This document shows positions 1,880-16,982 of a stretch of 64,000 nt of DNA, one piece after another; the stretch's first letter is position 1; the number at the start of each line of letters is the position of its first letter. The notes under the pieces are model-generated. The model saw only the letters and a program-made list of their open reading frames with translations. It was not told the DNA's origin and did not search any database. The position numbers and the translations under genes were made by a program. The DNA comes from Clostridia bacterium (lineage in GTDB: Bacteria > Bacillota > Clostridia > UMGS1883). Location: the NCBI GenBank assembly GCA_017505525.1, contig JAFVPB010000044.1, positions 12,662-76,661 of the forward strand, given 5' to 3'.

Positions 1880-1920
1880 ATATGCTCCTCCCGTTTAGAT
1901 ATTATTCTATATGTTATTGC

Positions 1921-2100
1921 GACACATAAGGTTTAGATGCAAACCTTTCAAAGGCTTCTCCTCGAGGAGAGGCTCCGCCGCAGGCGGTGGTGAGGTGTAG
2001 ATTGCAAAAGTAATCATTATCTTTTCCACCTCATCCGAGTTGCTTCGCAACCCACCTTCCCCTCAAGGGGAAGGCTTTCTATTTTCGACATCTTTCAACA
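1921..2100. other. GC-rich run of short perfect palindromes (candidate structured RNA/leader between promoter module A and glsA)
   Basis: About 55% GC in a roughly 30% GC context. Consecutive perfect palindromes are ctcctcgaggag, ccgccgcaggcgg, ttgcttcgcaa, ccttcccctcaaggggaagg, cctttgaaagg and gtttgcatctaaac. On the plus strand the last hairpin is followed by ctttctatttt, which is terminator-like. On the minus strand the region lies between a TTGACA promoter module and the glsA start. Confidence 0.4.
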
Positions 2101-2124
2101 TATCCATATTACTCGTGTCAAGTC
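2084..2124 (-). promoter_or_regulatory. promoter/leader module copy A (TTGACA-N17-TGTTGAAAGATGTCGAAAAT), facing glsA
   Basis: The minus strand reads gacTTGACAcgagtaatatggatatgTTGAAaGaTGTCGAAaatag. It aligns with copies B and C (below) over the -35 hexamer and a direct repeat GTYGAA...GTCGAA spaced 10-11 nt. Confidence 0.45.
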
Positions 2125-2373
2125 AGGAGAACAGTGAATAATAAGAACCGTCACGAAATATAACGAAATCAAAGATTTCTATATTTCGGAGAACCTTGAT
2201 ACTCGCAAGCTCGTATTAGGACCTACTATTTCCCCCTTAATTTTTCACTGCATTTTTTCTAAACAAAATTCTTTAGAACCCGCGAGAATACTAGATTTTC
2301 TCGCTTCCGATGATATATGTAAATATAATAAATCGGCAAACTAATCTTTTAAATTGTGTGGACTTGACACGAG
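2112..2373. repeat. MITE-like element copy A (262 bp, 13-bp terminal inverted repeats CTCGTGTCAAGTC/GACTTGACACGAG) with ~74-bp internal hairpin insertion (2144-2217)
   Basis: Left end 2112-2124 and right end 2361-2373 are exact reverse complements. The interior is >90% identical to copy B except for an inserted segment (agaaccgtcacgaaatata...ctcgtatt) carrying its own 9-bp stem (cgaaatata/tatatttcg). Confidence 0.7.
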
Positions 2374-2413
2374 TTGAAACTTAACAAAAACAATCCTTGT
2401 GTCATGTCAACAA

Positions 2414-3370
2414 TTATTCACCTGCAATAACTTTCAAAATCTTACCATCTGATTTTCTAATAATTACAGACAAATCCCCGCCCGGAACAAGTTCTTTATA
2501 TCTGCTTACTATAAAACATTTCTCATCATATGTTTCATCAACTACAACAGTTGTTTTATCAATAAAATCAGCACCTTCAATTTGTAAAAAAACATCATCA
2601 GCTATAGCAATAGCCACCGCTTCACCTAACTGAAAATCTACACTTTCTCCTACCCAGCCTTCTTTTCCATAGTATCCTAATTCAAACGCATTATTTTGCA
2701 CACCTTTTTTCTGATCAGCAGTTGAATTATTTAAAGCATTATAAACTCTTAATATGGTTACAATCGCTTCTTCTACCGTGTAAGTATCTTTAGGTGCAAA
2801 CTTATTATTTCCTACGCCCTGCATAAACCCCAAATTACTTATTATCTGTATGGATGGTAAAGACCACTCTGCCATTTCATCAACATCATCATAGGAATAG
2901 TACATTTCCGTTGTAGGTAGCGGATGAACAATATTTATCATACGAACGATAATCGTTGCAGCTTCTTCTCGTGTTAGAGTTTCGTTTGGCGCAAATTCGG
3001 TTATAGATTTCCCCGCAACGATATTATGATTGTATAAATCATACACCGCATTATTAGTACAGTCATCAAAAGGTCGTTTTGCAAATGGTGCTATCGGTTG
3101 TGTTCCGCCTTTTGTCTCTTCATCATACCAATTTTCAAAATAATCAGTGGTTAATATTAAATTATATATCAATTCACAAAAAGTCTCACGCGAAATCGGT
3201 GCACTGTACAGATATGTTTCATCAACACTAATAAGACCTATTGCATCAGCAATTGAAATGCTGTTCACAGCCCAATCACTACAATCGTGCTCACTATTTG
3301 TATCTGCATAAACTACAAACGATGAGCAAATAAATGCTAAAGTGATAACCATTGCTAATATTTTTTTCAT
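2414..3370 (-). CDS. secreted protein with three N-terminal SLH (S-layer homology) repeats and a ~100-aa C-terminal domain of unknown function
   Basis: Signal peptide MKKILAMVITLAFICSSFVVYA. Three SLH-like repeats carry the W/F...G...(F)AP...I(T/S)REE(A/F) pattern (PISRETFCELIYN, TLTREEAATIIVRMIN, TYTVEEAIVTILRVYN). Confidence 0.7.
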   Translation of the reverse strand: MKKILAMVITLAFICSSFVVYADTNSEHDCSDWAVNSISIADAIGLISVDETYLYSAPISRETFCELIYNLILTTDYFENWYDEETKGGTQPIAPFAKRPFDDCTNNAVYDLYNHNIVAGKSITEFAPNETLTREEAATIIVRMINIVHPLPTTEMYYSYDDVDEMAEWSLPSIQIISNLGFMQGVGNNKFAPKDTYTVEEAIVTILRVYNALNNSTADQKKGVQNNAFELGYYGKEGWVGESVDFQLGEAVAIAIADDVFLQIEGADFIDKTTVVVDETYDEKCFIVSRYKELVPGGDLSVIIRKSDGKILKVIAGE

Positions 3371-3390: not shown

Positions 3391-3433
3391 AGTATTCAGC
3401 ACCATTCGACAGGATTTTTACTCATGTCAAGTC
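3391..3433 (-). promoter_or_regulatory. promoter/leader module copy B facing the SLH gene
   Basis: The minus strand reads gacTTGACAtgagtaaaaatccTGTCGAATGGTGCTGAATACTgcagaaagaaggtatattttATG. The TTGACA lies inside the element-B terminal inverted repeat. The leader is homologous to copy C. Confidence 0.5.
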
Positions 3434-3606
3434 AGGAGAACAGTGAATAATAGGACCTACTATTTTTTTCCTTAATTTTTCACTGCTTTTTTCTGAACAA
3501 ATTTCTTTAGAACCCGCGAGAATACTGGATTTTCTCGCATCCGATAGTATATGTAAATATCAAAATCGGCAAACTAATCTTTTAAATTGTATTGACTTGA
3601 CACGAG
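3421..3606. repeat. MITE-like element copy B (186 bp, same 13-bp TIRs; CTCATGTCAAGTC ... GACTTGACACGAG)
   Basis: Near-identical to copy A minus the insertion. Internal 7-bp hairpin gcgagaa-N9-ttctcgc. No obvious target-site duplication. It lies between the SLH gene and the NDT-like gene. Confidence 0.7.
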
Positions 3607-3665
3607 AAAAACATATGAACTTGTAATCTTAGGATTTACCATGTTAATACAGCTTTTATAATCCA

Positions 3666-4574
3666 TTAGTTGTTTTCTGATACGCATCGTTCTGCAATTA
3701 TCGGTTCTATATCCTTAAACCCATTTTCAGATAACACATTTAGAAAATAGTTATAAATTCCTGGCACATCAAGTAGCCCTGACATTTTTATGTATATGTC
3801 AATCGTTTTTTCGATGAAATCAAATTTAACACTATCAACTGTTGCATCCGAATCAACCACTTCATGAACTTTTGAAAGCTGGCGTTGTAAAAATGGTCTA
3901 TTAGGTTTCTTTTCCGGTAATTCTGTAAATTTAAATGCCATCCGAGTAATTCGTGGTAACTCCTCTCGACTTTCCATAAACTGATGGTGAAAACGACGAT
4001 TTGAAATTGTTATTGCATCCTCAATGCGATTAAGTCTTTTTAAGATATATTCTAGTGGTTCTATACTTGACTCTGAATCTCTCTGCGCCTGTTGCAAAAT
4101 TGATGTGTCATGATTTAATTCTCCTAACACCTCATATATAGGTCCACTTTTTTTATCAAACGCTATTTCTTCTTCAGCCTTTTTAATGTCATCTCTTAAT
4201 TCTAGAACCCCTTTAGCATCGTTACAATAAAAAATAGTTCTTTGCATAATAATATCAGCAGGTAACGATGTCCCCTTTTCTGCGATCATAATTACTGGCA
4301 AACCAAGTGTATGACGAAAAGCTAGTTCGTACATAACATTAGGGTTTTTGTTAGTTAAGTTAGCTATAACCAACTCGTCTTGCGCTATCTCTGATATAAT
4401 TTGTTTTGTAATGGAACCAGGTTCGCTAATCTTATGCGATACAGAAATCTCATATTTAGATCCTAATGCTGGTACAATTGCAGCATCAATTATACCATCT
4501 ATATGCCTTCTTATTGGGTCTGCTTCATCTCCAATTGGCGTAATAATAAAACATCTTTTTTTATTTTCGCTCAT
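3666..4574 (-). CDS. cytoplasmic protein with N-terminal nucleoside 2-deoxyribosyltransferase-like (NDT/SLOG-type Rossmann) domain and ~170-aa helical C-terminal domain of unknown function
   Basis: 302 aa. The N-terminus CFIITPIGDE...DELVIANLT..NPNVMYELAFRHTLGLPVIMIAE matches the NDT-family pattern (beta1 with Gly, hydrophobic strand ending in (A/D)N, then the E-hGhA..hGhPVIhI catalytic-Glu segment). No signal peptide or TM segment. Product assignment is tentative. Confidence 0.45.
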   Translation of the reverse strand: MSENKKRCFIITPIGDEADPIRRHIDGIIDAAIVPALGSKYEISVSHKISEPGSITKQIISEIAQDELVIANLTNKNPNVMYELAFRHTLGLPVIMIAEKGTSLPADIIMQRTIFYCNDAKGVLELRDDIKKAEEEIAFDKKSGPIYEVLGELNHDTSILQQAQRDSESSIEPLEYILKRLNRIEDAITISNRRFHHQFMESREELPRITRMAFKFTELPEKKPNRPFLQRQLSKVHEVVDSDATVDSVKFDFIEKTIDIYIKMSGLLDVPGIYNYFLNVLSENGFKDIEPIIAERCVSENN

Positions 4575-4596: not shown

Positions 4597-4640
4597 TAAT
4601 TCGACACCATTCAACATAATTCGACTTTTGTCAAGACAGG
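4597..4640 (-). promoter_or_regulatory. promoter/leader module copy C (solo TIR-like TTGACA + conserved leader) facing the NDT-like gene
   Basis: The minus strand reads cTTGACAaaagtcgaattaTGTTGAATGGTGTCGAATTACTaaagaaaagaggagattttcATG. The tgtcaagacagga segment resembles the element TIR tgtcaagtcagga. Confidence 0.5.
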
Positions 4641-4666
4641 ATTAAAAAATATTCTCTTTGCATATA

Positions 4667-5281: not shown

Positions 5282-5968
5282 TTATTTAAAAAAACTTATT
5301 AAATATAAAACTCCCAGATGAAGAGGGTAGTAACTATAGAAAAAATATTTAAGATTGTATTTTCCTCTTGTTCCGTTGTATAAAAACAGTATTGGTAATG
5401 ACAATAGAGAAAAATACTGGACAAAGCTTCCCTGTGTGTTTAACGATAACAGAATGAGCATTATAGCTGTATTAACAATCTTTTTTTCTTTAGTTGGAGC
5501 AATATAAATTATAAATGGCATTATTATTCCTATAAATCCGTAATCAAAATAAATTTGATATATATCTAAAACATACACCATTATAAAAATAAGCAGCAAT
5601 ATTATAAAAAACTTAGGTTTTTCTTTTTTCTCTTCGTAAAATCTGGTGTAGGCACTGATAATTAATATTGAAAGAGAAAATGTTAAAAAGATATTTAAAT
5701 ACCAATCCCCTGTTGCAATTAAATAAACTGTCTGGCTTACAACTCCTACAAGAAAAACCTTCATAAAATATTTTTTTATATTTTTAGTGAAAAAACACCC
5801 TTCTGATATAGAATAGGCAAATATAGGAAAAGCAAGTCTTCCTATAATCCTGAAGGGTGTAAAATCGTTTAAAAGTATCAGACCAATATGGTCGATTGTC
5901 ATTGATATTATTGCTATGAGCTTAATTAAATTGTTGCTTAATCCTGATTTAAATGCATTCATAATCAT
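5282..5968 (-). CDS. TraX-family membrane protein
   Basis: NNLIKLIAIISMTIDHIGLIL is the TraX signature, and the protein is multi-pass hydrophobic. The start is taken at MIMNAF (5966-5968), which gives a TGATG overlap with the stop of the upstream J-domain gene; the longer track ORF (to 6013) is judged an artefact. Confidence 0.75.
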   Translation of the reverse strand: MIMNAFKSGLSNNLIKLIAIISMTIDHIGLILLNDFTPFRIIGRLAFPIFAYSISEGCFFTKNIKKYFMKVFLVGVVSQTVYLIATGDWYLNIFLTFSLSILIISAYTRFYEEKKEKPKFFIILLLIFIMVYVLDIYQIYFDYGFIGIIMPFIIYIAPTKEKKIVNTAIMLILLSLNTQGSFVQYFSLLSLPILFLYNGTRGKYNLKYFFYSYYPLHLGVLYLISFFK

Positions 5969-6639
5969 CAGCAGAACGGACAGCAAAGCCTGAAAAGACA
6001 AATTCCCCAGCAAAGCTTTTCAAGACCACTAATATCCATTCCATAACTTCTCCCTGTTTGAGTGTAGGTTTGGCCTGTTCGTGCCAAGAACATATAAACT
6101 TTTTGATATTCAGCATTGTTTGGCTCTATTCGTAAGGCTTGTTGAATCTGATTCAAAGCTGCTATAGTATTTCTTGTCCCATAGTTTGAAAGAGCGCTTA
6201 AATAGTACCATCGTGCATTTCTTTTAACACTATCTATGCGATTAAGTAAAATAAGAGCGTTCTGATAATTTTTCATATTAATTTCAGAAATAATCTTTAT
6301 TATTTCGGGGCTATCGTCTGGTAAAATATGCGGTGTTGACGGTATTTCCTGATAGAAATTCCCGAATATATCGTTGAAATCAAAACCACCATAAGAATAC
6401 CCCCTGTATCCCCCATACTGGCTGCTTTGCTGCTGTTGATATTGCTGCCTTGAATGTTTTTCAGGATTCATCAGCATATCATATGCTTCATTAACCTCGC
6501 TCATTTTTTCAGCTATACCGGGTTCATCAGGGTGCAAATCAGGATGATATTCTTTTGCTTTTTTTCTGTATGCTTTTTTTATTTCATCGGGTGTAGCTCC
6601 CGGAGAAATTCCAAGAACTTTATAAGGATCTGTTACCAT
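5968..6639 (-). CDS. J-domain (DnaJ-like) co-chaperone with Q/G/Y-rich linker and TPR-like C-terminal region
   Basis: DPYKVLGISPGATPDEIKKAYRKKAKEYHPDLHPDE...MSEVNEAYDML is a canonical J domain with an HPD motif. Start taken at MVTDPY (6639) with RBS AAAGGAAAG; the track ORF is extended upstream to 6693. Confidence 0.8.
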   Translation of the reverse strand: MVTDPYKVLGISPGATPDEIKKAYRKKAKEYHPDLHPDEPGIAEKMSEVNEAYDMLMNPEKHSRQQYQQQQSSQYGGYRGYSYGGFDFNDIFGNFYQEIPSTPHILPDDSPEIIKIISEINMKNYQNALILLNRIDSVKRNARWYYLSALSNYGTRNTIAALNQIQQALRIEPNNAEYQKVYMFLARTGQTYTQTGRSYGMDISGLEKLCWGICLFRLCCPFC

Positions 6640-7459
6640 TAATGGCTTTCCTTTCTTTTTTTGCTTTTGCTGAATTGTATTTTTGCCAAACACCAGAATA
6701 AATTGTATTTCTTAATATATTTTCATTTTGAACAAGCGGAAGCTTTTCAAATATTTCAGCGGCTTCACCTATTAGAACCTTTAATATATTTTCAATTTCA
6801 CTTTCAGATATATCTAAAGTAAGAAACGGATTATAGTTTCTTTTTTTTTGGTCTTTTTCTATATCAGCGGCTGCATCAATTAAATATATAAATTTTCCTA
6901 ACGAGTAACCAAAATTATAAACATCATTTTCCCAATTATCGCTTTTGCATCTGAATATTTCCCCAAGGATTTTGCCGAAACAATCGGAAGATTCATCGGG
7001 GGTACCATTTCTGTTTTCTATTGCCGACAAATCAGATATAAGACTTTCTATTTTAGATATTTTATCGGGATATTTTTCTTTCAGTAATTTAATTCTTGAC
7101 TTAATAAGCGATGAAAAAGAAAACATTAAAATATTTTTATCATCATGCCAGTCGTCAATACTTTTATAGTATGCTAAAACAATATTCATATCTGCAGCAT
7201 ATTCTATAAATTCGTTTTTTATATAAGATTGCGATTTTTTAGGATGAATAAGACATTTTTTATTTATTTGTTTCTGTTGTGGTTCGTAAAGCGAAGAGAG
7301 AAACAGCGCAAGAAACGTCATATCATAGTTTAAAGTTAATCTTGATAATCCACCGTTTGCTTCTCCGAGTGCTCGGCATATACCGCAATAAAACTGATTA
7401 TATGTGCTTTTATCTTCCGCACTTAATACATGAGGGTTAATTAAAACGTTTCCGAACAT
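6620..7459 (-). CDS. conserved hypothetical protein with N-terminal Y-C-G-I-C motif (possibly a DUF family co-occurring with J-domain proteins)
   Basis: 279 aa, no TM segment, and I recognise no catalytic motif. It is tightly packed between the zinc-ribbon gene and the J-domain gene. Confidence 0.55.
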   Translation of the reverse strand: MFGNVLINPHVLSAEDKSTYNQFYCGICRALGEANGGLSRLTLNYDMTFLALFLSSLYEPQQKQINKKCLIHPKKSQSYIKNEFIEYAADMNIVLAYYKSIDDWHDDKNILMFSFSSLIKSRIKLLKEKYPDKISKIESLISDLSAIENRNGTPDESSDCFGKILGEIFRCKSDNWENDVYNFGYSLGKFIYLIDAAADIEKDQKKRNYNPFLTLDISESEIENILKVLIGEAAEIFEKLPLVQNENILRNTIYSGVWQKYNSAKAKKERKAINGNRSL

Positions 7460-16707: not shown

Positions 16708-16982
16708 ATTAATAATTAAATCCTGTGATGAGAAATAGTAGCTGTGAAGCTTTTTGGAAAGCGAGCCGTCGTTGGTGTGAGGTACGGTGCAAAAAGGCAT
16801 AGTGAATGGGTCTTTGAGGAGCGAGGGCGAAAAGAGTTTCTTAGTAGTTTTCGACGTGTGTATCACGTAACAGATACAGAATATATCCATATGGAGTATT
16901 CGTTAAGAGTAAGCTTTGCTTAAACGTAGGGTGGCACCGCGATTAAAAATCGTCCCGACAGATAGTTCTGTCGGGATTTTTT
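16708..16982 (+). promoter_or_regulatory. T-box riboswitch leader (probable Trp specifier UGG) controlling trpB
   Basis: Promoter TTGACA (16672-16677)-N17-TATCAT. Stem-I elements (tgatgagaaatagta) and a candidate specifier loop ttttUGGAaag. The conserved T-box AACGTAGGGTGGCACCGCG lies at 16923-16941, and the terminator hairpin tcccgacagatagttctgtcggga plus U-run at 16953-16982. Confidence 0.8.

Follow-up and report, generated by a model that had tools for sequence, protein, structure and literature searches.

Type VIII Thoeris consists of ThsB, a TIR protein making canonical cyclic ADP-ribose (cADPR), and of an effector, ThsI, annotated as "CMP hydrolase and TPR" (CMP, cytidine monophosphate); the system protects E. 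coli and its toxicity is triggered by cADPR (bioRxiv 10.64898/2025.12.03.692087). The effector of Retron-Eco1, which resembles nucleoside 2-deoxyribosyltransferases (NDT), hydrolyses NAD(P)+ (PMC12673091). The effectors of the DUF4062/NIR group annotated as "CMP hydrolase" are NADases, and some of them constitute single-protein systems. We report here on a gene found at positions 3666..4574 (minus strand) of a stretch of 64,000 nucleotides from a Clostridia bacterium (GenBank assembly GCA_017505525.1, contig JAFVPB010000044.1, positions 12,662 to 76,661 of the forward strand), the whole of which is called the window hereafter. Comparison of sequences and profiles showed that the N-terminal domain of its product (the window protein) shares one sequence family with the effector domain of ThsI called "CMP hydrolase" and with a domain of a CBASS (cyclic oligonucleotide-based anti-phage signalling system) effector model of PADLOC. 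What appears to be new is that a validated immune effector domain has a relative which stands alone and bears a hypervariable tail, in a very large family which has no above-threshold Pfam or NCBIfam model. We propose, with chances that we hold to be evenly balanced, that this is a stand-alone sensor-effector protein made of a single polypeptide, of an anti-phage or conflict type.

Kinship and fold of the N-terminal domain

The open reading frame (ORF) is complete: it encodes 302 amino acids (aa) plus a stop from an ATG start, and a GGAG-type ribosome-binding site lies 7-10 nt 5' of this start. The protein is 100% identical to MBR1970410.1 of NCBI, a "hypothetical protein [Clostridia bacterium]" from a metagenome-assembled genome, and the gene is also present, with the same neighbours, on a 140-kb metagenomic contig. 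In the AlphaFold2 model, built with 47 homologues (mean predicted local distance difference test score, pLDDT, 83.8), residues 1-136 form a five-strand alpha/beta domain, residues 145-165 and 171-200 two long helices (pLDDT 55-73), and residues 208-283 a compact beta-alpha-beta-beta-alpha(-beta) domain (pLDDT >90). The parts distinguished are a predicted N-glycosidase domain of NDT fold, MilB/DNPH1-like and ThsI-like (residues 1-140; 4155..4574, minus strand), a linker made of the two helices (residues 141-204; 3963..4154, minus strand) and a C-terminal hypervariable domain, of ferredoxin/ACT-like alpha/beta type in AlphaFold models (residues 205-302; 3669..3962, minus strand). Searches of Pfam and NCBIfam, and of the PDB with the single sequence, gave no match for the window protein; PHROGs gave strong matches to three families of unknown function.

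A protein encoded on a plasmid of Vibrio coralliilyticus, adjoining a TIR_2 gene, carries the same N-domain fused to TPR-S. This TIR was tried as a type VIII ThsB and rejected: it is not close to the tested ThsB (E 0.049). Therefore the Yersinia locus itself was retrieved, by way of a protein identical to the Yersinia enterocolitica ThsB TIR sequence given in Table S1 (bioRxiv 10.64898/2025.12.03.692087). The 417-aa TPR-S protein which adjoins this ThsB is ThsI. It matches residues 3-153 of the window protein with 31% identity (BLASTP, E 1e-12), and the profile of the N-domain family with an hhalign probability of 99.05% (E 2e-18). One can notice that the Yersinia ThsI/ThsB pair (L109:3743-5414) lies between a MobA/MobL relaxase and TraD/shufflon genes, hence that it is the cargo of a conjugative or mobilisable element.

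The PADLOC scan of the window protein gave a single match, to PDLC00733, a CBASS "Effector" labelled TIR (E 1.4e-7, query residues 16-115), and the same model is matched by all 84 of the diverse family members scanned (best E 2.6e-18). The match covers only positions 254-353 of the 388 of the profile, so that what is shared is a C-terminal domain in the PDLC00733 family. No CD-NTase cyclase adjoins the gene, either in the window or in the 140-kb contig. Membership of the window gene in CBASS was therefore rejected, the match being at the level of the domain only. Because the domain recurs in ThsI, in the Vibrio TPR-S fusion and among the PDLC00733 matches, we concluded that it is a recurrent immune effector module.

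The comparison of structures gave a flavodoxin-like alpha/beta fold of NDT type, the closest solved structures being MilB, BcmB and DNPH1. With the full-length profile the matches to the PDB were dominated by coiled-coil noise, and the profile of the N-domain only was used instead: against the whole PDB it retrieved DNPH1/Rcl and nothing else (12 matches out of 12, best E 8.5e-4). The glutamate of the GYELG motif is the catalytic nucleophile of DNPH1. In the profile alignment it stands opposite E83 of the window protein, whose GAA codon is at 4326..4328 (minus strand) and which is the predicted catalytic residue. In the N-domain alignment C8, F9, E83, P93 and P105 never vary, and across the 84 diverse members E83 occupies one of only two invariant columns. 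The general acid of DNPH1, Asp80, is not kept: the aligned position is I59 in the window protein and Ile or Val across the family, and the adjacent K57 and Q58 are conserved instead. PF05014 is weakly matched, below threshold, by 60 of the 84 members at E<=1 (best E 4e-5), while the window protein itself has no match to it at E<=1; phage relatives scanned singly reach 13-18 bits against a cut-off of 28.8 bits, and neither the window protein nor its relatives attain the Pfam gathering score. Taken together, these sequence and model comparisons show that residues 1-140 form an NDT-fold domain, with a predicted N-glycosidase activity.

An earlier note, made from the letters of the window, had seen an NDT-like domain in this protein, and this reading was borne out by the structure, by the DNPH1/Rcl profile matches and by the sub-threshold PF05014 matches; profile searches, which could have shown an unrelated family, placed the domain with NDT-type DNPH1/Rcl. 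The motifs quoted there were located, CFIITPIG at residues 8-15 and ELVIANLTNKNPNVMYELAFRHTLGLPVIMIAE at residues 67-99, where conservation across this large family is highest, and the segment that it likened to a catalytic glutamate aligns with that of DNPH1. The wider assignment to LOG/SLOG had to be given up: no LOG or SLOG structure figured among the structural matches listed, and the domain is NDT/MilB-like. Kinship with PF10137 (CAP12/PycTIR), which we had first suspected, was abandoned in favour of NDT/MilB, as no TIR-like model of Pfam was matched: at E<=1 the window protein matches none of PF01582, PF13676, PF08937 and PF10137, and no TIR family was among the matches listed for 84 relatives. 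Some structural likeness to TIR is present, weaker than to MilB. Membership in DUF4062/NIR (PF13271) was likewise rejected, the window protein having no match to it and none being among the matches listed for 84 relatives.

Hypervariable tail and mobile contexts of the family

The N-domain as query matched the representatives of 14,032 clusters (50% identity) at E<=1e-3; the number falls to 4,965 with a limit of E<=1e-10 and to 679 with one of E<=1e-30. Species representatives of GTDB hold at least 551 loci, spread over Bacillota, Bacteroidota, Acidobacteriota, Pseudomonadota, Verrucomicrobiota, Chloroflexota and others. Homologues are present in Atlantibacter (WP_270973202.1), Pantoea and Kosakonia, among others. 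Among the matches listed, most family members have 270-320 aa (usually ~290 aa). Two longer ones (L071:7977-9632, 551 aa, and L094:7917-9098, 393 aa) probably have different C-terminal architectures, and one member of the scanned set carries GNAT and PP-binding domains.

The conservation of the protein decreases steeply along its length: among 47 close homologues, the mean pairwise identity is 74% for residues 1-140, 40% for the linker and 23% for residues 205-290. The linker carries a conserved PIY motif and a helix of the form EPLEYIxxRLNRIED, and is possibly an oligomerisation element. The tails of 74 sequences (73 species representatives and the window protein; median tail length 87 aa) fall into 59 clusters which BLAST does not link. 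The comparison of the profiles of two tail types (hhalign) gave no kinship, with a probability of 0.09%, which rules out one detectable sequence family for all tails. Modelled alone, the ~90 aa of the window tail adopt a ferredoxin/ACT-like fold (pLDDT 83.8), for which the PDB contains no significant structural match (best E 0.02). The 170 C-terminal residues had been called unrecognisable. We indeed found no sequence family for them, but about 60 aa of this stretch belong to the partly conserved helical linker. We propose that the C-terminal domain is a specificity or sensor module.

The gene is solitary. Within four genes of 78 homologues, no conserved partner gene was found: the largest neighbour family is that of integrases (7 of the 78 loci), no TIR, cyclase or other partner recurs, and no TIR family recurs among the 144 immediate neighbours. 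The adjacency or fusion to TIR genes which the earlier note suggested looking for thus exists in ThsI and in the Vibrio protein, where the N-domain is fused to TPR-S beside a TIR gene, but it is not the rule at these 78 loci. The commonest immediate neighbours are integrases, antiterminator Q, the small terminase, helix-turn-helix regulators, T5orf172/DUF4041, HNH and transposase fragments, and about 12 of the 144 match defence or candidate-defence models (among them PD-Lambda-1, AbiH, NucC, capH, PDC-S47, PDC-S31, PDC-S57 and PDC-S60). One homologue is the cargo of a conjugative element, together with ArdA, ParB, relaxase and type I restriction-modification genes; another adjoins an integrase; others are found beside Fic, DUF6414 with AAA, Eco57I/ResIII (restriction-modification), HNH or insertion sequences.

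Homologues are also present in 46 phage records. Staphylococcus phage SA13 (gp16, AFO71467.1) and Streptococcus phage Javan37 both carry the gene on the strand of the repressor, antisense to the early lytic genes, a position which suggests that it is expressed in the lysogen. In phiEf11 (ORF65) and in several prophages of Bacillota its place is directly before the terminase genes; it is also found beside antiterminator Q. The relatives nearest to the window protein (75% and 61% identity) are in unrelated neighbourhoods. The mobile elements, prophages and defence genes around the homologues are what one would expect of the mobile accessory function of a defence type which the earlier note had supposed. 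At the locus of the 61%-identical homologue (P0008), a DUF4062 gene of NIR/Evangelion type (L106:1-383) is found 6.6 kb away, and two pairs made each of an extracytoplasmic-function sigma factor and of a ~680-aa protein stand between the two.

Candidate functions

A homologous effector domain, a hypervariable tail and a mobile solitary gene can be regarded as established; everything beyond this core we infer. We favour a sensor-effector mechanism because of the analogy with ThsI, to which the precedents of Retron-Eco1 and of DUF4062/NIR can be added. The C-terminal domain would be the specificity module, its target being a protein or ligand of phage origin, and the linker helices would mediate oligomerisation or assembly. 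Once the target is recognised, the N-domain would be freed and would split NAD(P)+, or a nucleoside monophosphate such as CMP or a deoxynucleoside monophosphate (dNMP), by hydrolysis at the N-glycosidic bond. Starvation of the infected cell or of the phage would follow, and with it growth arrest or abortive infection; carried by a temperate phage, the protein would serve the lysogen as a defence against superinfection. In its most explicit form, this proposal would make of the family a single-protein anti-phage system, in which a hypervariable domain of ~90 aa senses phage factors directly and so sets free a ThsI-type N-glycosidase depleting NAD(P)+ or a nucleotide, and which confers superinfection immunity on prophages. 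We hold this form only tentatively, at somewhat less than an even chance.

Several points weigh against these proposals. The chemistry of ThsI itself is a hypothesis (bioRxiv 10.64898/2025.12.03.692087), and that of the window protein may differ from the chemistry of DNPH1, because the general-acid aspartate is not conserved. The hypervariable tail could have purposes other than sensing. The count of defence neighbours given above is an uncontrolled one and only suggestive. PADLOC 2023 has no separate system for the family, and our searches of the literature for a named stand-alone family found none. In the window, the neighbours of the gene look like housekeeping genes (Zn-ribbon, DUF1653, TraX, DnaJ, glutaminase). 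We sought an anomaly of guanine-cytosine (GC) content at the gene in this genome and found none, hence no compositional sign of a recent acquisition; we also sought a strain lacking the gene, and every contig which has the neighbouring Zn-ribbon gene also has it. The horizontal acquisition which had been suggested is thus consistent with the mobile contexts of the homologues, but this genome shows neither a GC anomaly nor a gene-less strain.

Instead of being a self-contained system, the protein could be an orphan, an effector or toxin with its partner gene at another locus, responding to a diffusible signal from another system or restrained by an unlinked antitoxin. In ThsI, and in the CBASS effector model, the domain does work as an effector switched on by a signal, and many proteins of the ACT/ferredoxin-like fold, which is that of the tail, bind small ligands. 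However, the sensor domains of second messengers are normally conserved and the tail of this family is not; nor does any TIR, cyclase or other partner recur within four genes at the 78 loci, where only the integrase reaches 7. We consider this explanation unlikely.

One can also imagine a constitutive enzyme of the nucleotide pool, DNPH1/MilB-like, hydrolysing a particular ribo- or deoxyribonucleoside monophosphate, possibly a modified one (hydroxymethyl-dUMP, hydroxymethyl-dCMP or hydroxymethyl-CMP). Its role would be salvage or sanitation, or a direct action on phages with modified bases, and it would involve no sensing and no cell suicide. The nearest solved structures, MilB, BcmB and DNPH1, act indeed on CMP or hydroxymethyl-CMP and on hydroxymethyl-dUMP, DNPH1/Rcl is the sole sequence match in the PDB, and the gene has in the window a neighbourhood which looks housekeeping. 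However, a tail which cannot be aligned between close relatives, the lack of synteny even at 75% identity, antisense inserts in prophages and the presence in conjugative elements are all unexpected for a metabolic enzyme, and the general-acid aspartate of DNPH1 is absent. Hence this role appears improbable to us.

Very doubtful, finally, is a counter-defence gene by which the carrier phage or conjugative element would benefit from the destruction of NAD-derived or nucleotide immune signals (cADPR isomers, cyclic nucleotides) of host systems of the Thoeris, CBASS or Pycsar type: homologues do occur in phages, one is near ArdA and ParB in a type of region known for anti-defence genes, and N-glycosidase chemistry could in principle cleave signals derived from ADP-ribose, but the copies of the Staphylococcus and Streptococcus phages lie on the repressor strand, many copies are chromosomal and beside defence genes, the same domain is a toxic effector in ThsI, and an enzyme degrading a signal needs a conserved ligand pocket and not a hypervariable appendage.

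If the single-polypeptide sensor-effector reading is true, thousands of "hypothetical proteins" gain a function, including prophage genes of Staphylococcus aureus, Streptococcus agalactiae and Enterococcus faecalis, and the ThsI or "CMP hydrolase" effector domain functions independently of signalling systems, in a self-contained immune protein. The family would then offer a compact system (~300 aa) in which the gating of an N-glycosidase by a very small hypervariable domain can be studied, and it would help to settle what the ThsI-type effector domain cleaves.

Surroundings of the gene and comparison with known systems

The window holds three copies of a module of ~45 nt (TCCTGnCTTGACA...TGTyGAAtGgTG, minus-strand reading) which includes a perfect TTGACA; a 13-mer of this module has 3 occurrences for 0.08 expected. 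All three copies are upstream of minus-strand genes, namely those of the glutaminase, of an S-layer homology (SLH) protein and of the window protein, the distance to the start codon being 25-26 nt for the last two and ~205 nt for the glutaminase. Copy C (4600..4641, minus strand), which has the perfect TTGACA and lies 26 nt before the start codon of the window gene, is a putative promoter. Module copies A (2084-2128) and B (3395-3437) are the termini of an element resembling a miniature inverted-repeat transposable element (MITE). Its copy A (2109..2374, ~266 bp) lies downstream from the SLH gene and is bounded by terminal inverted repeats (ACTCGTGTCAAGTC); its copy B (3416..3611, ~195 bp), one end of which carries module copy B, is directly downstream of the window gene and upstream of the SLH gene. 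The two copies flank the SLH gene in direct orientation and are 90-95% identical over their common parts, copy A having an insertion of ~75 bp relative to copy B.

The repeated module and the MITE-like repeats pointed out in the earlier note are thus real, with three module copies and with terminal inverted repeats in the element. Its "conserved promoter module" stands in so far as the module is repeated locally, including upstream of the gene, but a consensus scan did not call it a sigma-70 promoter. Upstream of homologues elsewhere the module is absent, being found in the contigs of this organism only: it is part of a local MITE-like repeat and does not travel with the gene. The co-regulation with the SLH gene which the earlier note had stated is a conjecture.

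Other features of the window were noticed along the way. The SLH protein (2414-3370, minus strand; 318 aa) has two SLH repeats, an N-terminus which resembles a signal peptide by eye, and a C-terminus with a sub-threshold match to Imm-NTF2-2, "NTF2 fold immunity protein" (E 2.8e-4, 21.4 bits for a cut-off of 26 bits). Between module copy A and the start of the glutaminase gene, a leader of ~230 nt (1880-2110, minus strand) is GC-rich and contains several short perfect hairpins; its minimum free energy is -74.9 kcal/mol (z = -4.09 versus shuffles), it has no Rfam match, and it may represent a regulatory leader not yet annotated, or else clustered palindromic repeats. The sole Rfam match in the window is a T-box leader (RF00230) at 16716-16960 (plus strand; 111.8 bits, E 7e-24). 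The longest ORFs of the DnaJ-domain gene (5968-6693) and of the TraX-like gene (5282-6013) overlap by 46 nt; the two genes abut in public gene calls, and the true start of the TraX-like gene is therefore probably internal to the listed ORF. The PADLOC scan of the whole window gave, among the matches listed, generic helicase and ABC cross-matches only. ORFs at ~44-60 kb matched RTasHel (E 4e-131), UvrD helicase models of GajB type (E 1e-117), and mad3 (E 1.4e-75) and mad2 (two ORFs each); these are probably housekeeping helicases and ATPases cross-matching defence models.

How does the window protein compare with known systems? The CMP N-glycosidases MilB and BcmB and the dNMP N-hydrolases DNPH1/Rcl (PF05014 clan), to which its match is below the Pfam threshold, are metabolic proteins of ~130-165 aa which have neither linker nor variable domain. 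The effector of Retron-Eco1 (Ec86) is likewise an NDT-fold N-glycosidase in phage defence, the likeness being one of fold, but it is under the control of a reverse transcriptase and its multicopy single-stranded DNA, whereas the window gene has no retron components.

ThsI is homologous to the window protein over its ~150 N-terminal residues, and the two have in common the motifs CF(I/V)I..G, GSI.K, VIA(N/D)(L/I)(T/S)..N.N..YEL..RH and PIY. They differ in what follows, a TPR-S domain in ThsI and the linker with the hypervariable ferredoxin-like domain in the window protein, where the Pfam scan detected neither PF20308 nor TPR; TPR-S is present in both the Yersinia ThsI and the Vibrio protein. 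They differ also in their surroundings, since ThsI adjoins the gene of the cADPR-making ThsB TIR and the window gene is flanked by those of a Zn_ribbon_15 protein and of the SLH protein. The single-protein DUF4062/NIR systems Vulcan and Evangelion, which deplete NAD+, resemble the window protein in another manner: an N-terminal TIR/CMP-hydrolase-like domain with a catalytic glutamate, a diversified C-terminal region and a single gene carried by mobile elements. However, their domain is of another family, and the tails of the window family are much shorter (~90 aa) and more variable.
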